A stretch of 64,000 nt of DNA. It comes from Mobula hypostoma (lineage: Eukaryota). The DNA is taken from contig NC_086108.1 in the NCBI RefSeq assembly GCF_963921235.1, forward strand, positions 46,068,001 to 46,132,000, given 5' to 3'. Each line of letters starts with the position of its first letter. The first letter of the stretch is position 1. Below the pieces are notes generated by a model. It saw only the letters and a list, made by a program, of their open reading frames with translations. It was not told the DNA's origin and made no database searches. Positions 3,821-54,944 of this stretch are shown here, piece after piece. Made by a program: the position numbers and the translations under genes.

Positions 3821-5840
3821 TAATGTAATCACCCCAAGTTGGAATAAAGTTTTGCAGAAAGTTCCAAAAACACACACTTTATTTGAGCTCCTTAAGGGTA
3901 AAATCTTTATATTCTATATATAATGTTCGAGTACACAAATCCACTTGCTCAAACATTACGTGCAAAATATAAAAAGTACAGGATCAGTGTGTTCTTGATG
4001 GTTGCTGCCATCTCAGTGGGCTAAAGGTCCTGTTTTGTGCTGTATGACTTTGGCACCACCACTAATAAAAGTGAAATGTTGTGAGTATAGAAACATAGAA
4101 AACCTACAGCACAATACAGGCCCTTCAGCCCACAAAGCTGTGCTGAACATGTCCCTACCTTAGCACGACCTAGGCTTTACCCATAGCCCTCTATTTTTCT
4201 AAGCTCCATGTACCCATCCAGGAGTCTCTTAAAAGACCCTATTGTTTCTGCCTCCACGGCCGCTGCTGTCAGCCCATCCCACGCACTCACCACTCTGCTT
4301 AAAAAACTTACCCCTGACATCTCCTCTGTACCTACTTCCAAGCACCTTAAAACTATGCCCTTTTGTGCTAGCCATTTCAGCCCTGGGGAAAAGCCTCTGA
4401 CTATCCACACGATCAATGCCTCTCATCATCTTATACACCTCTATCAGGTCACCTCTCATCCTCCGTCGCTCCAAGGAGAAAAGGCCGAGTTCACTCAACC
4501 TATTCTCATAAGGCATTCTCCCCAATCCAGACAACATCCTTGTAAATCTCCTCTGCACCCTTTCTATGGTTTCCACGTCCTTCCTATAGTGAGGCGACCA
4601 GAATTGAGCACAGTACTCCAGGTGGGGTCTGACCAGGGTCCTATATAGCTGCAACGTTACCTCTCAGCTCTTAAACTCAATCACATGATTGATGGCCAAT
4701 GCACCATATGCCTTCTTAACCACAGAGTCAACCTGCATAGCAGCTTTGAGTGTCCTATGGACTCAAACCCCAAGATCCCTCTGATCCTCCACACTGCCAA
4801 GTGTCTTACCATTAATGCTATATTCTGCCATCATATTTGACCTACCAAAATGAACCACCTCACACTTAGCTGGGTTGAACTTCATCTTCCACTTCTCAGC
4901 CCAGTTTTGCATCCTATCAATGTCCCCTTGTAACCTTTGACAGCCCTCCAAACTATCCACAACAACCCCCACCTTTGTGTCATCAACAAATTTACTAACC
5001 CATCCCTCCACTTCCTCATCCATGTAATTTATAAAAATCACAAAATGTAGGGGTCCCAGAACAGATCCCTGAGACACACCACTGGTCACCGGCCTCCATG
5101 CAGAATATGACCCGTCTACAACCACTCTTTGCCTTCTGTGGGCATGCCAGTTCTGGATCCACAAAGCAATGTCCCCTTGGATCCCATGCCTCCTTACTTT
5201 CTCAATAAACCTTGCATGGGGTACCTTGTCAAGTACCTTGCTGAAATTCATATACACTACATTTACTGCTCTACCTTCATCAATGTGTTAAGTCACATCC
5301 TCAACAAATTCAATCAGGCTCGTAAGGCATGACCTGCCTTTGACAAAAGCCATGCTGACTATTCCTAATCATACTATGCCTCTCCAAATATTCATAAATC
5401 TTGCCTCTCAGGATCTTCTCCATCAACTTACCAACCACTGAAGTAAGACTCACTGGTCTATAATTTCCTGGGCTATCTCTACTCCCTTTCTTGAATAAAG
5501 GAACAACATCCACAACCTTCCAATCCTCTGGAACCTCTTCCGTCCCCATTGATGATGCAAAGATCATTGCCAGAGGCTCAGGAATCTCCTCCCTCACTTC
5601 CCACAGTAGCCTGGGGTACATCCCGTCCAGTCCCGGTGACTTATCCAACTTAATGCTTTCCAAAAGCTCCAGCACATCCTTTTTCTTAATATCTACATTC
5701 TCAAAGCTTTTCAGTACACTGCAAGTCATCCCTACAATCATTAAACAACAGGAATTCTGCAGATGCTGGAAATTCAAGCAACATACATCAAAGTTGCTGG
5801 TGAACGCAGCAGGCCAGGCAGCATCTGTAGGAAGAGGTGC

Positions 5841-5875
5841 AGTCGACGTTTCAGGCCGAGACCCTTCGTCAGGAG
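5841..5875 (-). ncRNA. Minimal type-I hammerhead ribozyme-like motif (mirror copy)
   Basis: Minus strand CTC-CTGACGA-AGG-gtctcgg-CCT-GAAAC-GTC-GACT. The 5' arm of stem I is truncated by the inversion junction. Confidence 0.55.
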
Positions 5876-5909
5876 TCCTGACGAAGGGTGTCGGCCTGAA
5901 ACGTCAACT
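5874..5909 (+). ncRNA. Minimal type-I hammerhead ribozyme-like motif
   Basis: AGTC-CTGACGA-AGG-gtgtcgg-CCT-GAAAC-GTC-AACT: core CUGAnGA, 3-bp stem II, GAAAC, GUC triplet. Stem I has one mismatch. Confidence 0.6.
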
Positions 5910-7029
5910 GCACCTCTTCCTATAGATGCTGCCTGGCCTGCTGCGTTCACCAGCAACTTTGATGTGTGTTCCTACAATCATTAAGATCCTTTTCCATAGT
6001 GAATACTGAAGCAAAGTATTTATTAAGTACCTCCGCTATTTCCTGCGGTTCCATACACACTTTTCCACTGTCACACTTGACTCTCATTCTCTCATGTCTT
6101 ATCCTCTTGCTCTTCATATACTTGTAGAATGCCTTGGGGTTTTCCTTGATCCTGTCCGCCAAGGCCTTCTCATGGCCCCTTCTGAATTTCCTAATTTCAT
6201 TCTTAAGCTCCTTCCTTCTAGCCTTATAATATTCTAGATTCAAATCATTACCTAGTTTTTTGAAACTTTTGTAAGCTCTTCTTTTCTTTTTGACTAGATT
6301 TACAACAGCCTTTGTGCACCATGGATCTTGTACCCTACCATCCTTTTCATGTCTCATTGGAATGTACCTACTCAGAACCCCACGCAAATATCCCCTGAAC
6401 ATTTGCCACCTTTCTTCGGTACGTTTCCCTAAGAATATCTGTTTCCAATTTATGCTTTTCCAAGTTCCTGCCTGATAGCCTCATAGTTCCCCTTACTCCA
6501 ATTAAACGCTTCCCTAACTTGTCTGTTCCTATCCCTCTCCAATGCTGTAGTAAATGAGTTAGAATTGTGATCACTATCTCCAAAATGCTCTCCTACTGGG
6601 AGACCTGACACCTGACCAGGTACATTTCCCAATACCAGATCAAGTACAGCATCTCCTCTTGTAGGCTTATCTACATATTGTGTCAAGAAACCTTCCTGAA
6701 CACACGTAACAAACTCCACCCCACCTAAAGCCCTCACTCCAGGGAGATGCCAATCAATATTTGGGAAATTAAAATCTCCCACCACAACAACCCTGTTATT
6801 ATTACTCCTTTCCAGAATCTGTCTCCCTATTTGCTCCTCGATGTCCCTGTCACTATTGGGTGGTCTATAAAAACACCCAGTAGAGTTATTGACCCCTCCT
6901 TATTCCTAACTTCCACTCACAAAGACTCCGTAGACAACCCCTTTGTGACTTTCTCCTTTTCTGCAGCCGTGACACTATCCCTGATCAACAGTTCCAAGCC
7001 CCCACCTCTTTTGCCTCCCTCCCTTCCTA

Positions 7030-7443
<414 letters not shown>

Positions 7444-11382: not shown

Positions 11383-11740
11383 GAATAAACTCTTCTTCGG
11401 CTTCCAACCGGGTCCATGTATCGATTTTAACTGATGTTTCGACGACAAACTCTATCATCAGGGACGATGCCCAGGCACGTCTAGCCCTGTGGTATTTATA
11501 CACTCGTCGTCCATCTCTCCTGATTGATTAGTCCTCATCCAATTGGTTTCCACTGACCCACCTGCTTGGATGACTAGCCATTCAGGAGGGGTCGATGACG
11601 AGGGTATAAATACCACTGGACTAGACATGCCCAGGCATAATTCCTGATGATGATTGCAGGGTTTGCCATCGAAACAATCAATATCTATGTCTGACTGGAA
11701 GCCCGAGAAGAGTTTATTCGTCATATACACCAGGAAAGAA
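11383..11740. mobile_element. Second Penelope-like family: inverted terminal pair with hammerhead-like cores
   Basis: Inverted arms gaataaactcttct..ggcttcca / tggaagcc..agaagagtttattc and ggtatttatac / gtataaatacc. CTGATGA...GAAAC occurs on both strands (11644-11675 plus; 11436-11461 minus). Confidence 0.65.
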
Positions 11741-25730: not shown

Positions 25731-27652
25731 TTATTCTTTGAATATTCCACAATTACATCACTGTCCAAAAATATATTGATTTTAGCCTTGACTATCCAAT
25801 CTCAGTTGTGCATATGATTAATGAACATGATAATACCAGGAGTCGGAAAAACGGCACCTATCCAGAAATTCAACTTCGGTCACCAGCGTTGACACATTAT
25901 AATGCAGTAGGAGTCAATAGAACTGAATTTCAAAGGGAGAGAAGAATACATGACGTTTCCATGTTGGAGAAGGGCATAAAGTGCTTTGCAGAGATGGGGT
26001 GAATTATAATGACTTTTTAAGAAAAGAAAACCTGCAGGAATTTCTTCTTTGAAATGTTTAATTTACAGTTGTTAAACTGAGAGATGTTAGTGCTGTGGAA
26101 CGGAATCTATTCCACTGTGAACAAATATTAGCTATATGTAAGTCCTATCAGAACTATAGATAACAAAGTTTGATCTACATTGATGAACAATGGTTCCCTT
26201 TGTTCATAGCACAGAGATAAGATAATTTCTTCCCATTATTCTATCCTTGGGATTGCAGCATTTTTACTGGACCAACAGTCTGGACCATTGAGCTGGAGAT
26301 GAGAGCTTGATCCTTGCCAGAGCATTGGTGGGGAGGGACGAATTTAAAAAAAGTTTTAATAATGAGAACCATGAAACTATAAAACAGATCTCACTTTGTT
26401 CAAAATAGAAAGAAACAACCACCATACGAGAAACTGAGATGACACGGGGAGGTAATCACCCCTATGTTACAGGAGGCAGGTAAATGGGTGACTGTCAAGA
26501 GAGGGAAATGAAATGGGGGCAGGTAGTACAGAGTACCCCTGTGCTGTTTTCCCCAATATTAAATATACCATTTTGGATACTGTTGAGAGGGACAACATAC
26601 CAAGGGGTAGCTGTGGCGAATGGGTCACTGGCACTTTGACTAGTGCTGTGGCTCAGAAGGGAAGGGGTGGAAGAAGGGGACTGCATTAGTGATAGGGGTT
26701 CCATAGTTAGAGGAGTAGGCATGAGGTTCTGTGCATGCGATTGAGGTCACCTAGATGGTATGTTACCTTCCAGGTGCCAGGATTAAGGAAATCTCAGATC
26801 GGATCCGCGACATTCTAAAGAGGGAGGATGAGTAGCCAGGAGTCTAGGTACATACTGGCACCGAAGACATAGGTAGGAAAATTGAGGTGGTTCTGGAGAG
26901 AGAATTTCAGGGAGCTAGGTACTGTATAAAGCTGAAAAGCAGGACCTCCAGGGTAGCAATCAAGGTGGGCCAGTGAAGGTAGGAATGGAATGACTTGGCA
27001 GATGAATGCATGGGTGAGAAACTGGTGCAGGGGGCAGGGTTTCAGATTTCTGGATCACTTCTGGCGAAGGCATGACCCATGCAAAAGGGGCAGGTTACAC
27101 CTGAACCTGAGAAGAATCAATATCCATGTGGTTAGGTTTATTAGAGCTGTTGCGGAGGGTTGAAGCTAATTTGGCAGGGGGATAGGATCTGGAGTGATAG
27201 GACTGTTGGATTACAAGCAGAGGCAGTGTGCCATGAGATTGTCTGGAAGGACAGGCAGCAGATGATGGGACAAAATTTCAGTCAGTAGGAAACTGCAGTG
27301 TAAAGGGGAGACAAAATTTAAAAACACTGACTGATACAGGACTGAAGGTGTTTATTTGAATGCATGCAGTATATGGAATAAGGCAGATGATCTTGCAGCA
27401 CAGTTAGACATTGACAGGCACGATGTTGTTGGCATCACTGAGTTGTGGCTGAAAGAAGATCATAATTGGGAGCTTAACATCCAAGGGCACACATTGTATC
27501 GAAAGGACAGGCAGGTAGATAGAGGGGGTGGGGTGGCTGTGTCAGTAAAACATGAAATCAAATCCTCAGAAAGAGGTATCATATGAAAATGTAGAATCCC
27601 AGTAGGTAGAGTTGAGAAATGGTAAGGGTGAAAAGACCCTGATGGGAGTTAA

Positions 27653-27786
27653 GCAACACACACAAAATGCTGGAGGAACTCAGCAGGCCAGGCAGCAGAA
27701 ATGGAAAAGAGTACAGACTGCTGAGTTCCTCCAGCATCATATGTGTGTTGCTTGGATTTCTAGCATCTGCAGATTTTCTCTAGTTT
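27653..27786. mobile_element. Short inverted Penelope-like terminal pair
   Basis: gcaacacacacaaaatgctggaggaactcagcag / ctgctgagttcctccagcat...tgtgtgttgc. Exact 14-bp TSD ctgatgggagttaa at 27639-27652 and 27787-27800. Confidence 0.85.
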
Positions 27787-36960: not shown

Positions 36961-39216
<2,256 letters not shown>

Positions 39217-39885
39217 TTAAGAAAACATCTAAATACCAAAAATTTTAAACTTCATATTACGAGCGTGCAAATCCAACTAATTCATTCCATAATGTCAAGT
39301 GACAACCTTGAGATAAGCTACCAAAGCAGAATTATGCTCAATTATGCCCTGTCCTCTACAACAGCTGTTTTTCACTAATATTAGTGAAGACAAATGAATT
39401 GATAGACCAAGACCATAATGCATAGGAGCAGAATTGGGCCATTTGGCCCATCAAGTCTTCTCTGCCATTCCATCATGGCTGATTTATTACCTCTCTCAAC
39501 CCCATTCTTCTGCTTCCTACACGTAACCTTTGACACCCTGACTAATCAAGAACCTATCAACCTCCTGTCCTGAAGTCCACAATCATTTCCCTGGTCTTAT
39601 TGAATTGGGTGAGAGGTTGTTGTTATTACACCACTCAGCCCAGTTTTCAATCTCCCTCCTGTACGCTGATTCATCACCCCATTTGATACAGCCCACACAG
39701 TGGTGTCATCAACAAAACTGTATATAGTGTTGGAGCTGTACTTAGCCACACAGTCATAGCAAGTAGAGCAGGGGGCTAAGTACACATCCCTGCGATACCC
39801 CTGTGCTGATGGAGATTGTAGAGGAACACACATAAAAGTTGCTGGTGAACGCAGCAGGCCAGGCAGCATCTCTAGGAAGAGGTGC

Positions 39886-39921
39886 AGTTGACGTTTCAGG
39901 CCGAGACCCTTCGTCAGGACT
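39886..39921 (-). ncRNA. Minimal type-I hammerhead ribozyme-like motif in the PLE terminus
   Basis: Minus strand AGTC-CTGACGA-AGG-gtctcgg-CCT-GAAAC-GTC-AACT. Confidence 0.6.
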
Positions 39922-40820
39922 AACTGAAGGAAGAGTGAGTAAGGGATTTGAAAGTTGGAGGGGGAGGGGGAGATCCAAAATGATAGGAGAAGACAGGAGG
40001 GGGAGGGATGGAGCCAAGAGCTGGACAGGTGATAGGCAAAAGGGATATGAGAGGATCATGGGACAGGAGGTCCGGGAAGAAAGACGGGGGGGGGGGAACC
40101 CAGAGGATGGGCAAGGGGTATATTCAGAGGGACAGAGGGAGAAAAAGGAGAGTGAGAGAAAGAATGTGTGCATAAAAATAAGTAACAGATGGGGTACAAG
40201 GGGGAGGTGGGGCATTAGCGGAAGTTAGAGAAGTCGATGTTCATGCCATCAGGTTGGAGGCTACCCAGACGGAATATAAGGTGTTGTTCGTCCAACCTGA
40301 GTGTGGCTTCATCTTTACAGTAGAGGAGGCCGTGGATAGACATGTCAGAATGGGAATGGCATGTGGAATTAAAAGGTGTGGCCACTGGGAGATCCTGCTT
40401 TCTCTGGCGGACAGAGCATAGGTGTTCAGCAAAGCGGTCTCCCAGTCTGTGTCGGGTCTCGCCAATATATAAAAGGCCACATTGGGAGCACCGGACGCAG
40501 TATATCACCCCAGCTGACTCACAGGTGAAGTGTTGCCTCACCTGGAAGGACTGTTTGGGGCCCTGAATGGTGGTAAGGGAGGAAGTGTAAGGGCATGTGT
40601 AGCACTTGTTCCGCTTACACGGATAAGTGCCAGGAGGAAGATCAGTGGGGAGGGATGGGGGGGACGAATGGACAAGGGAGTTGCGTAGGGAGCGATCCCT
40701 GCGGAATGCAGAGAGGAGGGGGAGGGAAAGATGTGCTTAGTGGTGGGATCCCGTTGGAGGTGGCAGAAGTTACGGAGAATAATATGTTGGACCCGGAGGC
40801 TGGTGGGGTGGTAGGTGATT

Positions 40821-40959
40821 TCCTCACCTACCACCCCACCAGCTTCCGGGTCCAACATATTATTCCTCACCTACCACCCCACCAGCCTCCAGGTCCAACA
40901 TATTATTCCTCACCTACCACTCCGCCAGCCTCCGGGTCCAACATATTATACCTCACCTA
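40821..40959 (+). repeat. About 3.2 tandem copies of a 43-bp PLE-internal unit, inverted relative to 40778-40818
   Basis: tcctcacctaccaccccaccagc(t/c)tcc(g/a)ggtccaacatattat repeated from 40821, 40864 and 40907. Confidence 0.92.
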
Positions 40960-40986
40960 ATCCCTTACTCACTCTTCTTTCAGTTT

Positions 40987-41020
40987 GTCCTGATGAAGGG
41001 TCTCGGCCTGAAACGTTGAC
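40987..41020 (+). ncRNA. Minimal type-I hammerhead ribozyme-like motif with canonical CUGAUGA core
   Basis: GTC-CTGATGA-AGG-gtctcgg-CCT-GAAAC-GTT-GAC: stem I GTC/GAC, stem II AGG/CCT, GUU triplet. Confidence 0.65.
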
Positions 41021-41544
41021 TGCACCTCTTCCTAGAGATGTTACCTGGCCTGCTGCGTTCACCAGCAACTTTTATGTGTGTTGCTTGAATTTCCAGTATC
41101 TGCAGAATTCCTGTTGTTTGCGTTTTGAGATTGTAGAGGAGATGTTTTTGCCAACCGGAACTGACTGGAATCTACAAGTGAGGAAAGCCGGGATCCAATT
41201 GCACAAGGGGGTAGCTTCTTCCCCTCTGCTATGAATATCTCCTCAGTCCTGTCTTTTTGCATTACTATTGAATATTTTTAATAAATACTACTTATTGTAA
41301 TTTAAATTTTATAATACTATATATTACAATGAACTGCTGCTGCAAAACAATGAATTTGACAATGTACGTTGGTGATATTAAACCTGATTCTGAAGAGATG
41401 CTTCACTGCTGCTCCCATTCTCTGGCATCCAAATCCCCTCTGGACTCTCAGTGGTAGAGGCAGATACATTGGACGTGGGTGCCAGGGCCGTCCTCTCCCA
41501 GCGAGGACCAGGTGGGATGACTCACCCTTGTGCCTTCTTACAGT

Positions 41545-44460
41545 CATAGAAAACTACAGCACAGAAACACGCCCTTTGGCCCATCGAGTCAATGCTGAAC
41601 CATTTAAACTGCGTGGTCCCACTGACTTGCAACCGGACCATAACCCTCACTACCACTCCCATCCACGTACCTATCTAAACGTCTCTTAACTGTTGAAATT
41701 AAAATCCCATCCACGACTTGCACTGGTTGCTTGTTCTACACTCTCACCACTCTCTGAGTGAAGTTTCCCCTCATATTCCCCTTAAACATCTCATCTTTCA
41801 CCTTTAACCCATGACTTCTAGTTGTAGTCTCACCCAGCCTCAGTAGAAACAGACTGCCTGCATTTACCCTATCTTTTCCCCTCATAATTTTGTATACCTC
41901 TATCAAATCTCACCCAGCCTTCTGTGTTCTGGGGAATTAAGTCCTAAACTGTTCAATCTTCCCTATTAACTAAGGTTCTCCAATCTCTATACTCTTTCAG
42001 TATTAATTATATCTTTCCTGTAGGTCGGTAGCCAAAACTGCACACAATACTCTAAATTAGGCCTCACTAATGTCTTATACAACTTCAACACAACATCCCA
42101 ACTCATGTACTCAATACTTTGATCTATGAAAGCCAATGTGCCAAAGCTTCCTTTATGACCCTATCTACTTGTGACACCACTTTCAATGAATTTTGGACCT
42201 GTTTTCCCAGATCCCTTTGTTCTGCCGTACTCTTCAATGCCCTACAGCTCACTGTGTAGAATCTACCCTGGTTAGTCCTCCCAAAGTGCAAGACCTCATT
42301 CTTGTCTGCATTAAATTCTATCTGTCATTTTTCAGCCAACTTTTCCATCTGGTCCAGATCGTGCTGTAAGGTTTGAAAGTATTCCTCACTGTCCACTACA
42401 CTGACAATCTTGGTATCATATGCAGATTTGCTGATCCAGTTAACCATGTTATCATCTGGATCATTGATATAGATGACAAGCAACAACAGACACAGCACCG
42501 ATCCCTGTGGTACTCCACTAGTCACAGGCCTCCAGTCAGTGAGGCAACCATCGATTACCATTCTCATCCAATTTACTACCTCATCTTGAATGCCAAGTGA
42601 CTGAACCTTATTGTGCAACCTCCCATGTGGGACCTTACAAATGCCTTCATGAAGTCCATGTAGATAACATCCACAGACTTGCCTTTATCAATATTCCTGG
42701 TAACCTCCCAAAACACTCTAAGGTTGGTTAAATATGACCTTCCATGCACAAAGCCTGCTGACTATCCCTAATTGAATTCTGTCTATCTAACTACTCATAT
42801 CTGGTCCTTTAGAATACCTTCCAGAAACGTTCCCACTACAGGTGTCAGGCTCAATGACCTATAATTTCCTGGTTTATTCTTAGAGCCTTTCTTAAACAAT
42901 AAAACAACATTAGCTATCCTCCAATCCTCTGGTACCTCACCTGTTGCTAAGGATGATTTAAATATCTCTGCTAGGGCCACTGAAATTTCTGCACTGGCCT
43001 CCCACAGGGTCTGAGGGAACACCTTGTCAGGCTCTGGGGATTTATCCACCCAGATTTTCCTCAAGACAGCAAACCCCTCCTCCTCTGTAACCTGTGTAGG
43101 GTCCATGACCTTACTGCTGCTTTGCTTCACTTCCATTGACACTGACCGTCTCCCAAGTAAACACAGATGCAAAATTTTAAAAAAATCCATTTAAAATCTC
43201 CCCCATCTATTTTGGGTCTGGTACTCTAGTTCCCATATCGTTCAGCTCCAGGGGCAGCATGGTAGCATAGTGGTTAGCACAACATTTTATAATACGTTGC
43301 TACCACTGCCAGTCTGGAGTTTGTATGTTGTCCCCATGACCACGTGGGCTTTCCTCTGGGTGCACCAGTTTCCTCCCACAGGCCAAAGATGTACCAGTTG
43401 GTAGGTTGATTGGTCATTGCAAATTTTCCCATGACTAAGCTAGGGGTAAATCAGGGGTTACTGGGCAACATGGTTAGAAGGGAAGAAGGGCCTGTACAAC
43501 ACTGTATCTCAATTTTTAAAAATGCCTCCATGCAGAATGAGCAAACCTTACCACTAGGATATTTGTCCCCTCCAGTTTAGGAGCAAACTTTCTCTTCTGC
43601 ACAGATTCCACCTTCCCTGGGAGAAAGTACAAGGATCCAAAAATTTGAGGCCTTCCCTCCTGCACCAACTCCTTGGCCATGTGTTAAACTGCATGATCTT
43701 CATATTTCTGGCCTCACTAGCACGTGACAATCCTGAGTCCTGTCCTTCAACTTAGCACCAAACTCCCTGAATATTTTGCAGAACCTCACTCCTCTTTTTA
43801 TCTATGTCATTGGTATCTATATGGACCATCACCTCCGGCTGCTCGCCCTCACCCTTAAGAATGCTGCGGACTTAATCCAAGATGTCACGGTCGCTGGCAC
43901 CCAGGAGACAACATACCATTTGGGAATCTTGTTCTTGTCCATAGAACCTCCTTTAGTTCCCCTAACTAATGAATCCCCTATCACGACAGTTCACCTCTTC
44001 TCCCTCCATCCCTCCTGAGCCGCAGAGACAGACTCAGTGCCAGAGACTGAATGCTGTGACTTTTCTCCGCGAAGTCACCCCCCAACAGTATCCAAAGTGA
44101 TATAGCTGTTGTGAGGGGGATAGCCACAGGGGTGCTCTGCACTAGCTGTTTAACCCCTTTTACCCTTCTGTTCGTCACCCAGTTTTCTGTGTCTTGTACC
44201 TTGGGTGTAACTACCTCTTCATATGTTCTACCTATCACCCCTCAACCTCCCGAGTGACCCAGAGGTCATCCAGTTCCAGCTCCAGCTCCTTAACATGGAG
44301 TGTTAGAAGCTGCAGCTGGATGCACTTCTTGCAGGTAAAGCTGTCAGGGACACCGAAAGTCTCCCTGCCATCTCACAACCTGCAAGAGGAGCATTCAGCT
44401 ATTCTGCCTGGCTTCCCTACTGCTCTATCTGTGCAATTATAAAGAAGGAAACAATAAATA
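41545..44460 (-). mobile_element. Decayed CR1 LINE (ORF1 and ORF2 pieces) with a nested SINE
   Basis: ORFs WRPVTSGVPQGSVL and EVPEDWRIANVVLLFKKGSKNKPGNYRSLSLT; ORF1-like segment at 43.6-44.4 kb. Confidence 0.85.
43251..43520 (+). mobile_element. V-SINE (tRNA-derived)
   Basis: ggggcagcatggtagcatagtggttagcac head and V domain ggagtttgtatgttgtcccc...cagtttcctcccacaggccaaagatg. Confidence 0.8.
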
Positions 44461-44610
44461 AACTGAAAAGATCTACCACAGCTTTGCGCCTTTTCTCACT
44501 CAAGCCTCCAAGAGCTAAAGCCTCAAATCCCCATTCTAACACTGTCCACTCCAACAAAGACCACTCCACTTACCTCTGCCTTAGTTTTATTTGCCCTTGC
44601 TAATGAATCA

Positions 44611-46492
44611 CGCATGTTCAACTCTACACAATGCCATTATCAAGTAAGAGACAGGAAGTTACTCACCATTAAATGGAGACATTGTCGGATGCGAAACACC
44701 AAGCCCTTTCTGGTCTGTACTGACCACCAGAACCTCGTATTCATACAAAAGATCAGCCAACTCAACCCACATCAGGCTCGTGGGCCCGCTTCTTCCAGCA
44801 ATTTAATTTCACCATCTCCTAATGACCCAGTTCCAAGAAAACACTAAGGTGGATGCCCTGTCATGACGGTTTGAGCTGAAATTGAGATCAACCCATCATT
44901 CCATCCCTGCAAATCCTCGCCTCAATTGTCTAGGATCTTGAGAACCAGATCTTCCAGGCCCTACTGCACGAGGCTACTGCAGCCAACACACCTGACAACT
45001 GCAGGTATGTGCCAATGGCAATGGGACCACTCCTCACCCATCTGGCCATCCAGGCACAAGGTGGTCTCTGGATTTTCTGCATTGCCAGTTCTGATGGCCC
45101 ACCATGTTCGCAGATGAATGTCAGTTTGTCACTGCCTACCCTCAATGTGCACAGCCCATCTCCTCCAACAAGGAATCCTCTGGTCTCCCGCGACCCCTGT
45201 CAGCCCCTCATCACCTGTGGTCACACATTGCCTTGGATTTCTTCTTGGGTTTGCCACCCTCCACTGGGGCCATGGTGATCATGATGGTGATGGACCAGTT
45301 CTCCAAGGCAACCCACTTCTTTGCTCTCCCCAAGCTTCCATCAGCCGCTGATTCACCTGACCTGGTTCTGCATCATGCAGTTCGCCTCCACGGCTCACAA
45401 TTTTCCAAGGACAGGTGGGCAGCCTTCTGCTCCCTCCTCTTCAGCTCAGTGAGCTTGTCCTCTGGCCATCATCCACAGACCAATGGACAGTTAGAGCCAA
45501 TCAGCGAGTAGAAAAGCTTCTGCAATGCCTCACCTCCTCAAGTCTTTCCATGTGGAAGAAGCATATGCTCTGGTCCGAACTGTCCCACAATCTACACGCC
45601 TCCTCCATCATGGGTATGGCACTCTTTGAAGTACTTCATGGCTACCAACCCCAGTTGCTACCCCCACCCCCTGGAGGAGCCAATGGTGGAGGATCTGTCC
45701 ACCAAGCTCTGCTTCACTGCTGCCAGAATGCTTGGATGACGATAAGGAAGACTATCCTAGCTGTGAACCGCGCCTATAGCCACTGGTGCTCAGCCAGACT
45801 ACTCCAACCGAGGGCTGTCCACCCAAGATCTGTCCCTGTGCACTGACTCCTGGAAGCTCTCACCCTGATTCATTGGGGCCTTTAAGACTGCTCATCACAT
45901 CAACCCAGACACTTACTGTCTCCAGCTGCCACAGTCCTTCAGGATCACACCTATCTTCCACGTGTCCTGCCCCAAGCCTGTTGTCCATGGACCACTCAAC
46001 CCATATAGGCCTGAACCTCTGGAACCAAAGATGGCGGATGGTGGTCTGGTGTACTTGATACACCAGTTGATGGATTCACACTATCATGGGCAGGGTGTGC
46101 AGTCCCTGGTCAGCTGGGAGGGATGGAGCCAAGAGGAGAGATTATGGGTTGCTGGGGCCAGCTGTTTGGGGTGGAGGGCTTCCTGTCAGGCCTTCACATG
46201 CAGGCTCCTCCTGGTCTCCACCCAGACAACAGGAACCACCTGCCACTCATTTCCAACTCACTACCTGCAGCCTATTTAAACCCTACTCTCAGCCACAATC
46301 CTTGTTCGCTCAGCCTCAACCAGTTGCACCTAGCCTCCAGTTAGCTTGCTGCCTTGCCATGTTAAATATCTGATTTCTCTTGCTTTGTGGCCCATTGTAG
46401 CATGTTATTTTGCAGTTTATTAAAGTTATCGCCTACTGATAAAATAATCTCTGTTCTGCACGTGGATCAAGCCTTCTCTATGCTTCATGACA
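44611..46492 (+). mobile_element. Ty3/Gypsy (chromovirus-type) LTR retrotransposon remnant: RNase H, integrase, chromodomain, PPT and 3' LTR
   Basis: CTDHQNL (RNase H), WSHIALDFFLGLPPS...VMDQFSKATHF and SGHHPQTNGQ (integrase), VQSLVSWEGWSQEERLWV (chromodomain), purine-rich ggggtggaggg, then an LTR from TGTCA (46184) to TGACA (46492). Confidence 0.9.
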
Positions 46493-46675
46493 CCAGCTTC
46501 AGGAAGGGAGTGATGGAATGGAAAGGAAATCAGCGGAAAGATTAAACTGACGGTCACCTTCCATTCCCATCCCTCTGTATGGTTTGTGAGATTTGTGCAT
46601 TTATTTACCCTGACACCAGTGACACCACTGAAATTAATTTGCATCAAATATTGAAAAATAAATGTTCTGACTTAC

Positions 46676-46709
46676 CTGGATGATCTGGGGATTGTAAAAC
46701 TTCTGACAT
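46676..46709 (-). CDS. KANK4: KANK4-like coding exon 1 (MSEVLQSPDHP + G; whole exon 46676-46757 including 5' UTR)
   Basis: Minus strand: pyrimidine tract and CAG acceptor (46758-46760), in-frame TAA 9 nt upstream of the ATG, A at -3, donor CAG|GTAAGT at 46676/46675. The phase-1 end joins exon 2 in frame (G+CC = Ala). Confidence 0.75.
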
Positions 46710-47579
46710 TCTGTCTTAGCAGAACGTGGCTTGATTAATTCAGTGAAACTGACTGAGCTGCAAGCAAAAGTAGGCAAACAAAATTAACCTCTTAAATTTT
46801 AAAGTATTGGTCTATTTAACTTAGGAAGCCATTGCTTGATATTTTGTACTTCACCAATAACACATCAATGATTCATTGCAAAGTAGTTTTTCACATGTAG
46901 TATTCCAGCTGCCTCTTACTCTTTCCCAGTTCAAAAGAAGGATCTTTGACCTAAAATATTAATTCTGCTTCACTTTCCACGGATGCTGACTGACCTGGTG
47001 AGTATTTCCAGCACGGCTAATTTTATTTCAGATCTCCAACATTTGCAGTTTGTTGATCTTCACTGTTTGGTATCAGTCTCGGCACAGGAACTAAAGGCGG
47101 CCTATATATTATCCATTAATCTTTGTATTAGTGTATCATTTAACATAAGGAAATAGAAACTTGACAGTTATCACTACATGTTTTATTGAAGCAATCCTAA
47201 AGACATAAGAGTATCGAATCTCTGAAAGTTTTAATGACTATAATTTGATTCACAGCTCCAAATTCAACAAAATTTGGGTATAACAGAAAAGGATTATGTT
47301 ATGACAGGGTTACCCAAGCTAAGAGGCAAGGAGAAAGAAATATTATCAAAAGCACTGTCATATAATTATTGTAATAACAATTTAAACGTTCTATGTTGTC
47401 CGACCTCTGGGAAGCAAACTCCTAATACTAACAGGCCAGCAAAGGAAAATCAAAATGTCTTCTATGATAGAAATCCAAAACACAAATAAGATGTCTTTTG
47501 GGGGGGAAAAATCACTCTACATTTCAGTCTCTAATCTCATGTGAAGGCTGCAGAGGCAAATTTAGCTATTGCAGCCTCT

Positions 47580-51009: not shown

Positions 51010-51880
51010 GCACAAGAGAGTCTGCAGTTGCTGGAAGTCTTGAGCAACACACTCCCCACTTTCTATAGGGATCTCTCTATACACGATTCTCTTGTCCGCT
51101 CATCCCTCCCCATTGATCTCCCTCCTGGCACATCCCGGCAAGAGGGGCAAGTGCCGCACCTGCTCCCTTACCGCCTTTCAGGGCCCCAAACAGTCCTTCC
51201 AGGTGAGGTGATCTGGGAGTCTGTTGGGGTGACCTACTGTGTCCAGTGCTCCCAGTGAGGCCTGCTCTACATCAGCGAGACCATTTTGTCAAGGACCTTC
51301 ACTCCATCCACCACAATAGGTGGATCTCCTGCTTCAACTTCTCATTCCAACGTGTCCGTCCATGGCCTCCTCTACTGCCACTCAGGTTAGAAGAGCAACA
51401 CCTCATATTACATCTGGGTAGCCTTCCACCTGATGGCATAAACATAAATTTCTTTAATCCAGTAATTTCTTTCTCCTTCCACCTCTCTTTTTTCATTCTC
51501 CATTCTGGTTATCCTCTCACCACTTCTCTTCTCCTCAGCTGTCCATCACCTTCCCCTGGTGTGCCTCCTCCTTTTCTCTCTTCAATGGTCCACTGTCCTC
51601 CCCTATCACATTCCTCTTCAACCCTTCTCCTTTTCCACCTATCACCTCCCAGCTTACTTCATAAAACTCTCCCCTTCGCCTATCATCCATCAACGTGCAC
51701 TCCCTACCCCCCCTCCAGTCCTCTTATTCTGACTTCTGCCCCTTCCTGTCCAGCCACAAATGGGGTCTTGGCCTGAAACATCGACTGTTCATCCCTCCTC
51801 CGTAGTTACTGCCCAACTTGCTGAGTTCCTCCAGCATTCTGTGTGTGTTGTCAAAGATTTCTGCAGCTGCAGCATCACTT
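51010..51880 (+). mobile_element. Decayed Penelope-like element nested in an antisense CR1 fragment (about 50470-52040)
   Basis: WESVGVTYCVQCSQ and LRLEEQHLILHLGSLPPDGIN are homologous to the 40215-40541 GIY-YIG ORF. Terminus ggcctgaaacatcgact...ctgagttcctccagcatt. Confidence 0.85.
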
Positions 51881-53545: not shown

Positions 53546-54944
53546 CACTTCCTTTTAGGAATGGCATTCCTGGGAAAATGAACAGGACTGCGGGCAGAGG
53601 GGAGACAAGAAGCAAGACCTACACAAAGCTCTCAGGGAGTTTTCTTATCTGATCCTCAGCAGGAAACAATAAGTGGGATGTCTATGTAGCGAAAGGGCAT
53701 GTTTGCCAGAATTTGCCACTTGTAGCCGTCACAGCAATCCAGACCAAAATAGAGGGATGACTTTCCAGAGGCTGTCAAGATGAACACGTGTCTGCCCTTG
53801 GCTCCTTTTGAGTTGGAATTGAGAGACATCTGCAGCATCACACTGATAGGTTACTGCTTAAAGCAAACCACCATAGTTCCTACTGGAAACACTCGGCAGG
53901 TTATCTATGTAAAAGACAGAGTTAATGTTTCAAGTTGAAGTCCTTTCATCAGGAGAGACTAAATATTTCTCCCTGAACAAGTGTTGCCTGACCCAATCAC
54001 TTCCTGCATTTTTAGGTCTCAGCCTGAAACGTCATCCATCCAGTTGCCTCTGTAGATGCTGCCTGACCTGCTGTGTTCTACTAGCATGTTACGTGTGTTG
54101 CTTCAGACTTCCAGCCTCTGGGTTTCCTTTCTTCATTTCAGACTTCCAATAACTGCAGTATTTTTCATTTCCTTCCATCCTGAGACAGGATGGTGGTGTG
54201 GTGTTGAAATATGGGAATTTATGGAACAATTCTGGAGATTGGTGTTAAAGATACTTTCTTACTTTCTCCTTTAAAGATACTTTCCACATGGAGCCAAATG
54301 GTGTGGCACCACAGATGGAGAAAGACAAGCTACATGAAAGCTTGAGTCGGTGTTCTGGTACAAACAGCCCTTGGCTCAATATGTTACGATTAGACACTTT
54401 TAACAGACTATCATCACTTAGACTATATAGGCAGATGAATTCACACGCTCTTGTGGTTGGGAAGGAAAATTAAATAAAAATAGAAAATGTTGGAAACACT
54501 CAGGGGGCTGGACAGCATCTGTGGAAAGAGAAATAGTTAAAACATCCTGAAGCTTCATCAGAGCAGCAAGTTAGGAATGTTGTTGCTCGCTTCTACTGTC
54601 TGCATGCTGTGGTTTTTCCCATTCCTCTGTGCATAAGGTGTTGGTCTTTTTAATTGTTTGTTTAATTTGGTTCTTTCAGATTTCTTACTGTGTGACTGCT
54701 TGTAAACAAACTTATCTCAAGGTTGTGTAATATATACATTTTTTTGATAATAAATATATTTTGAACTTTGAATTGGTCAAACATTGCTTGCTGTCCACAG
54801 ACTGCAGGTCAGTAACATGATAATCTATTAAGTATGGTCACCCAACTCTGCAAAATGTTCAATAAATTGACTCCAATATTAGTGTTTCATCAGGTTTTAA
54901 GCACTACTTAAAAGGAGCAAAGTATCAATTTTGGAATCTTCTTT

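Follow-up and report, generated by a model that had tools for sequence, protein, structure and literature searches.

What are hammerhead ribozyme cores doing in the introns of a gene, and on which RNA, if any, would they act? The question is raised by the 64-kb stretch of DNA analysed here (the window), in which the pattern CTGANGA-N8-30-GAAAC matches eight times against 1.4 expected, a number reached in none of 100 shuffles. We consider it probable that the copies at the four sites described below are minimal type-I hammerheads of the terminal repeat (pLTR) of a very abundant Penelope-like element (PLE), a retrotransposon, that they were left in two introns of a KANK gene by two truncated, inverted insertions, and that the ribozyme acts on element RNA only, its intronic copies being inert.

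Hammerhead copies of a PLE in the KANK gene

Positions in the element are counted here from C3 of the hammerhead core (position 0), with predicted cleavage between +27 and +28. The only intact window copy, 40987-41020 on the plus strand, is a minimal type-I hammerhead by sequence, folding and comparison with the published consensus (PMC4209133), and reads GTC CTGATGA A GGGT CTCG GCCT GAAAC GTT GAC. Stem I (40987-40989 and 41018-41020) encloses CUGAUGA (40990-40996), an unpaired A (40997), stem II (40998-41001 and 41006-41009), GAAAC (41010-41014) and the GUU triplet, with the predicted cut after 41017. The sequence-only reading had placed the full GTC...GT(C/T)-GAC pattern at four sites; the core is present at all four, and the full pattern at 40987 only. 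The three remaining cores are 5848-5872 (minus strand), 5878-5902 (plus) and 39893-39917 (minus). The copies at 39886-39921 (minus) and 5874-5909 (plus) read GTC-AAC; here G1.1 is changed to A (at 39889 and 5906, respectively), with loss of the first stem I pair, and the second of them also has a loop II change. In the copy at 5841-5875 (minus), the 5' strand of stem I is cut off by the inversion junction and C replaces G at -3.

Stem II had been drawn as AGG/CCU with a 7-nt loop, which is the wrong register: an unpaired A followed by GGGU/GCCU with a 4-nt loop fits better. Folded in a -8 to +40 context, four of five family-A copies give GGGU/GCCU a pair probability of 0.52-0.97, against 0.00-0.05 for AGG/CCU, and the copy at 5841(-) forms neither register. 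C occupies position 11.1 in the older families and in 18 of 197 copies, which fits the GGG register only and thus favours the GGGU/GCCU parse. The 10.1-11.1 pair is accordingly G-C in these, and G-U in the young subfamily; the published alignment includes rows with U at 11.1 (PMC4209133). Folding and the C/U at 11.1 also back the unpaired nucleotide between A9 and 10.1 (A at 40997). Other proposed features were confirmed, all four window copies having a loopless helix III, GAAAC adjoining GUH and the palindromic ACGU. Helix I is short and open, with 4 bp in the family and in the full element L064 (see below), 3 bp at 40987 and a broken helix in the other three window copies. The proposed identity as a PLE pLTR minimal type-I hammerhead agrees with the consensus of PMC4209133 in core boxes, one unpaired base, G-opened helix II, GAAA, palindromic CG and UH. 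Of the 24 matches given by an Rfam scan (E up to 5), none was to a hammerhead family, the miRNA hits being inverted repeats below the gathering score, and the MFE of five 46-48-mers folded alone (z-scores -0.6 to +1.1) gave no stability support.

Described earlier as repeated across the introns, the four copies are all present and represent two head-to-head insertion events. One, 39822-41125, has a 14-bp target duplication at 39812-39825 and 41127-41140. Its minus arm is 5'-truncated and comprises linker, GIY-YIG, pLTR, hammerhead and short end; beyond it come a rearrangement at the junction, near 40820-40940, and a pLTR end on the plus strand, inverted and carrying the long tail. The arm includes a PLE endonuclease remnant (40215-40736, minus; GIY-YIG PF01541, E 3e-4, 21.3 bits against a cut-off of 22.6) with a CX4CxxC linker, for which 95% identical copies exist. 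The other insertion, 5743-5973, consists of head-to-head pLTR stubs of ~130 and ~100 bp within an older LINE fragment; here the 14-bp target duplication occupies 5731-5744 and 5971-5984.

Several side observations concern these and related insertions. The target duplications at 5731-5744 and 39812-39825, both in LINE remnants, have the 7-bp word TACAATC in common on opposite strands, a possible target preference (n = 2). Repeated template slippage is suggested by the inversion junction at 40757-40940, where an almost perfect palindrome (centre near 40821) and some three tandem repeats of a ~43-bp stretch from the element ORF precede the pLTR end. Older stubs of the PLE terminus, 70-86% identical, lie at 646-865, 27651-27786, 51763-51850 and 53927-54120, with at least two inverted pairs and cores mostly decayed. 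A further inverted pair at 11383-11719 has a different hammerhead-like core (11436-11461 minus, 11644-11675 plus) with a longer stem II and, together with a similar pair in locus L195, probably represents a second, unrelated PLE family.

The full element, L064, was reached via copies found with the GIY-YIG remnant of the window minus arm (39822-40775). Its hammerhead cores at 3988 and 7502, 3,514 nt apart, flank an RT + GIY-YIG frame, one in each pLTR, and 29 copies of the element were traced to the 3' ribozyme. RVT_1 is weak in L064 (E 0.005, below the cut-off), GIY-YIG has E 1e-4, and there are two frameshifts. A programmed RT/EN frameshift was rejected, since poly-C slippage and query selection explain the pattern and the frame continues across the RT-EN junction in 27 of 38 copies, taken from loci that were chosen independently of that query. 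The poly-C run between RT and EN (window 40717-40727) spans 11-18 nt among copies, many of which are out of frame, as is the window copy. The CX4CxxC linker seen in the translations falls within the CX2-5CxxC pattern given for Neptune and Nematis (PMC8557442), and the linker motif appears Neptune-like, an assignment by linker alone with a pattern common to Nematis. The element shows a partial tandem pLTR, an inverted 5' copy, a tail and a target duplication. Copies end 3' at two places, +90-95 and +125-135 (~90 and ~130 nt after the core), which is an optional PLE tail. Two tandems were seen besides: L323 (G000:C2:157228300-157238299), a near-complete two-unit tandem, is a candidate source of read-through RNA, and L324 (G000:C2:157812700-157819799) with three 310-bp units of ribozyme, tail and the beginning of the ORF in tandem, looks like an incipient non-LTR retrozyme array and might allow dimers to form in cis.

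The suggested genome-wide spread of the motif is borne out by pattern counts. The 3.48-Gb genome contains 40,538 instances (20,230 + 20,308) of the exact 34-mer, two bases of which are variable, against none of the reversed control, and a core-only pattern gives 102,839 core-intact motifs against 1,243 controls, one per ~34 kb. Published counts are about 4,000 in coelacanth and 9,000 in Xenopus, with different descriptors (PMC4209133). This is a real, very abundant PLE family within the known hammerhead class.

The host gene belongs to the KANK family and lies on the minus strand, as identified by domain searches and translation (KN motif exon and C-terminal ankyrin repeats). The large exon with the KN motif spans 36990-39197 (PF12075, E 3e-21; KANK1 peptide match; contigs), and the GT-AG intron that holds the 39822-41125 insertion spans 39198-46675. 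The joint 39197-46676 is present in contigs of runs X1, X2 and X5 (three of four runs; putative RNA); these are assembled contigs, presumed to be RNA, in which depth over repeats does not equal expression. An upstream KANK exon, 46676-46757 (minus), contains an in-phase ATG and is joined to the KN exon in RNA-like contigs. The 5743-5973 insertion lies between an ankyrin exon at ~7200-7400 and the last coding exon at ~1420-1519, in an intron defined by translation only. Because KANK is on the minus strand, the copy at 39886(-) is a sense intronic copy and that at 40987(+) is antisense. The claim that sense-strand copies lie in the host pre-mRNA thus stands for 39886(-) and 5841(-), and fails for the headline copy at 40987(+); the copy at 5874-5909 is antisense as well.

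Copy starts and the templates they suggest

An anchor downstream of the core, with 85,845 exact matches (12,224 in the case of a younger variant), served to gather copies, and those analysed all came from contig C1. The discovery set held 114 young copies, 30 of 144 having been dropped for <86% identity; L208-L210, chosen by core match, were kept outside the counts, and L148, which overlaps L147, outside the replicate. Seventy of the 114 copies start at -65 to +60, and 36 of these 70 at -13 to +10. In a replicate of 100 copies, with this bin fixed beforehand, the proportion was 38 of 63 (binomial p 6e-13, with inverted partners not independent). The bin around the predicted cut site, +25 to +31, held 3 of 70 and 5 of 63 starts against 3.9 and 3.5 expected. 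Copy starts thus pile up at the ribozyme 5' edge and not at the cut site, which argues that most templates were uncut. Uncut RNA is also the main substrate in vitro for the anole element (PMC11167929). In the replicate, four of the 63 copies have their first base exactly at +28, immediately past the predicted cut, and a minor cleaved-template class could exist beside the uncut majority. When a +28 peak was sought among 100 of the 2,288 copies truncated at +12 to +46, no clear peak was found: two of the first 30, scored by script, start at +27/+28, and among all 100, scored by eye, ~5-7 start at +28 against ~4-9 at +13, +14, +15, +18, +24, +25 and +34.

In the scheme that we favour, the element protein nicks the target on both strands and initiates reverse transcription at the tail, two activities described in vitro for the anole PLE (PMC11167929). 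Uncut RNA beginning just upstream of the ribozyme, a start judged from DNA junctions alone, would then give stubs of 100-150 bp tipped by the ribozyme, often as head-to-head pairs, and a template without a 5' end there (a read-through tandem, a circle or an RNA-to-RNA jump) would give long and more-than-unit copies. For cleavage, a second copy would be required, with helix III formed via the ACGU palindrome, or else the element protein, and most insertions would do without cleavage. Inserted copies would decay neutrally.

The pile-up could instead arise from structure, with reverse transcriptase stalling early in elongation, or cDNA folding back, at a -19 to +11 hairpin whose inverted repeat would also provide microhomology to the head-to-head joins. 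We regard this explanation as possible, if doubtful. The predicted hairpin covers the hotspot almost exactly, an inverted partner accompanies 54 of the 74 hotspot copies, and palindromic PLE junctions have been taken as self-priming (PMC3846280). However, the hairpin barely beats shuffles (p 0.025 in family A, 0.23 in family B), the other 20 hotspot copies have no inverted partner, and long copies cross the same sequence with a single stop in 30.

This last point comes from a sample gathered at the ORF start (94 of 559 exact matches, at 90 loci). Among its 40 long copies, 29 of them traced to the 3' ribozyme and 11 reaching the locus edge, 29 pass -23 (27 beyond -132, up to -3376), one stops at -23 to +10 and 10 stop downstream. 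The 41 short copies, which end by +435, behave differently: 16 stop at -23 to +10 (three of these being one tandem), eight run further, none past -132, and 17 stop downstream. Thirteen intermediate copies divide 4, 5 and 4 over those three outcomes. Counting only copies that reach +10, 1 of 30 long and 16 of 24 short ORF-side copies stop at -23 to +10 (Fisher p 5e-7), and none of these 24 short copies passes -132, as 27 of the 30 long ones do. The limit of -23 was chosen once the first 30 loci had been seen; restricted to the 60 loci that followed, the contrast is 1 of 22 against 11 of 14 (hand count). Stalling dictated by sequence would be expected in both classes alike; an RNA 5' end is therefore favoured for the short copies and a template without a 5' end for the long ones. 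The contrast between short and long copies suggests two template classes. As a separate observation, many ORF-side copies in L241-L330 end at +170 to +350, and four exactly at +1016, possibly marking extra starts of reverse transcription or RNA 3' ends.

Similarity between the two pLTR copies of a long locus exceeds the between-locus average in 18 of 19 cases; in eight loci they are mutual nearest, and 14 private variants are common to both pLTRs in five. Such similarity within a locus fits reuse of one RNA segment, by circle or by jump. At subfamily sites, the pLTRs of a few long loci differ from each other, a pattern compatible with conversion or with jumps from one RNA to another; tandem sources may contribute to long copies. 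We put forward, tentatively and as a reading that is at present rather unlikely, that the PLE uses two particular templates: linear uncut RNA from just before the hammerhead, giving tens of thousands of stubs, and ribozyme-cut, re-ligated circular RNA, giving long or more-than-unit copies and rebuilding the pLTR promoter.

Conservation and prospects of cleavage

Excess conservation of core and paired positions over the flanks, which had been named as a test of the motif, is absent from 197 long copies, where rare variants number 15 in the core against 18.0 expected and 29 in the stems against 32.1 (base-matched flanks), a result that is not decisive for dead copies. An earlier sample of 81 copies had 3 core variants against 9.7 (p 0.013) or 5.5 (p 0.20), depending on the filter, and the larger set did not repeat this deficit. 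The motif is intact in 157 of the 197 copies. Subfamily variants fall in 0 of 11 core columns and 13 of 114 flank columns, too few for significance alone. Between the majority sequences of families the core is kept, with changes at N7, 11.1, H17 and loop II; the two older families were collected by downstream sequence alone, and their assignment is rough and overlapping. A core kept across families together with decay within copies points to selection on source elements only and neutral decay once inserted.

Selection of this kind could also preserve a motif that has lost cleavage altogether and serves source elements as a signal, structural or protein-binding, close to where reverse transcription starts. 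Consistent with this are the lack of a clear cut-site footprint at insertion junctions, the lack of effect of catalytic mutants on anole insertion in vitro (PMC11167929) and the Naiad PLEs, which thrive without a hammerhead (PMC8557442). We nevertheless judge it improbable, given that the between-family changes sit at positions that catalysis tolerates and that the core is free of the subfamily variants seen in the flanks, the latter count again being not significant by itself.

Folding models, which leave out tertiary contacts and proteins, predict a stem I pairing of 0.0 in a -30 to +100 context for all four window copies and L064. A pyrimidine-rich pLTR segment at -19 to -7 (40971-40983, plus strand, in the copy at 40987) is predicted to base-pair with CUGAYGAAGGGU, with p 0.98 in that copy, and so to keep the hammerhead from folding; the range across L064, 40987 and 39886 is 0.73-0.98, and in 39886(-) the upstream pLTR is predicted to pair with the CUGACGA box with p 0.73. 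In the 5841/5875 pair the inverted partner supplies the blocking strand, and 5841(-) is predicted to lie in a -63 kcal/mol fold. The predicted active double-hammerhead has -9.5 kcal/mol for L064, -8.1 for 40987, -2.9 for 39886 and +2.9 for 5841, and the best predicted dimer folds of these four have -21 to -28 kcal/mol (-26.7 for 39886, -25.3 for 5841). Published min-HHRs showed no monomer cleavage and low dimer cleavage (PMC4209133), and the anole PLE ribozyme did not cleave without the element's protein (PMC11167929).

Splicing might both set the hotspot and remove the blocking strand, if a spliceosomal intron ended at the helix I 5' edge as in D. virilis Penelope. Besides this Drosophila precedent, families A, B and C all have a pyrimidine tract and AG ahead of stem I, and the predicted stem I pairing of L064 rises from 0.0 to 0.57 if the RNA starts at -6. 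Yet none of 90 copies starting at -22 to +12 has an upstream element segment joined as exon and the pLTR shows no good donor by eye, so that we consider such an intron very unlikely.

We find no support for the copies in KANK being likely self-cleavers: the headline copy is antisense, both sense copies have a broken stem I and predicted competing hairpins, and the intron with the 39886 copy is joined out in contigs of three of four runs. On these models, they are likely inert passengers, inactive in host RNA. Least probable of all, and very unlikely, is that dispersed sense copies, dimerising in cis or trans given their abundance, cut host pre-mRNAs and affect genes such as KANK; the number of core-intact motifs (~100,000), the proportion of intact long copies, by which many intact sense copies must lie elsewhere, and the low dimer cleavage known for the class (PMC4209133) speak for it, but the broken stems I and unfavourable active dimers of both sense copies, the loss of predicted stem I pairing with upstream pLTR, the spliced contigs spanning the KANK intron, the lack of conservation after insertion in 197 copies and the need of the anole ribozyme for the element's protein (PMC11167929) speak against it.

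Relation to known elements

The min-HHR of metazoan PLEs (Cervera and de la Pena 2014, PMC4209133) has in common with the present motif the boxes, the unpaired base after A9, the loopless palindromic C-G at 15.2/16.2, the short open helix I, the pLTR location, many lone copies and opposite-strand pairs. Here, by contrast, helix II is shorter (4 bp), and the youngest subfamily has G10.1-U11.1. No cartilaginous fish was found among the rows and terms checked in that paper. Poseidon of Anolis carolinensis (Frangieh et al. 2024, PMC11167929) is alike in its two 3' ends defining a tail and in uncut RNA as main substrate, and its both-strand extension fits the head-to-head pairs seen here. It differs in that the ribozyme of the present element lies upstream of the first ATG seen in L064 instead of overlapping it, and in the Neptune-like linker; the comparison is between biochemistry there and sequence here. 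Endonuclease-positive PLEs of the Neptune type (PMC8557442, PMC3846280) are alike in 5' truncation, partial tandems, inverted 5' copy, a 30-40 bp tail, target duplication and the CX2-5CxxC linker; a 5' hotspot at the ribozyme edge, or its absence in long copies, is not reported in the parts of those two papers compared here.

Vertebrate non-LTR retrozymes (bioRxiv 10.64898/2026.07.22.740005) are likewise pLTR-derived, hammerhead-bearing, non-autonomous sequences, and are described as mostly inactive in vitro, with one of nine dimers cleaved. They form tandem arrays, whereas the copies described here are dispersed single or inverted stubs with one three-unit tandem (L324). The retrozymes catalogued in that preprint include a chondrichthyan set, to which the present motif may belong. 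In the literature on Penelope hammerheads covered, in which subscription journals are thinly represented, we found no report of this PLE family or of the contrast between short and long copies; a similar survey, equally thin for subscription journals, gave no match for intronic co-transcriptional cleavage by such motifs.

The scale of the family, with ~100,000 motifs, is more than ten times the vertebrate counts of PMC4209133, obtained with a different descriptor; otherwise the biology is as described before. This family is young and abundant enough for junction statistics to bear on the role of the PLE hammerhead and the origin of partial pLTR tandems, and they offer a modest, testable clue to PLE replication. 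If true, the two-template reading would support, from genomic data, the circle model put forward for PLE replication in PMC4209133 and would assign a function to the minimal hammerhead.
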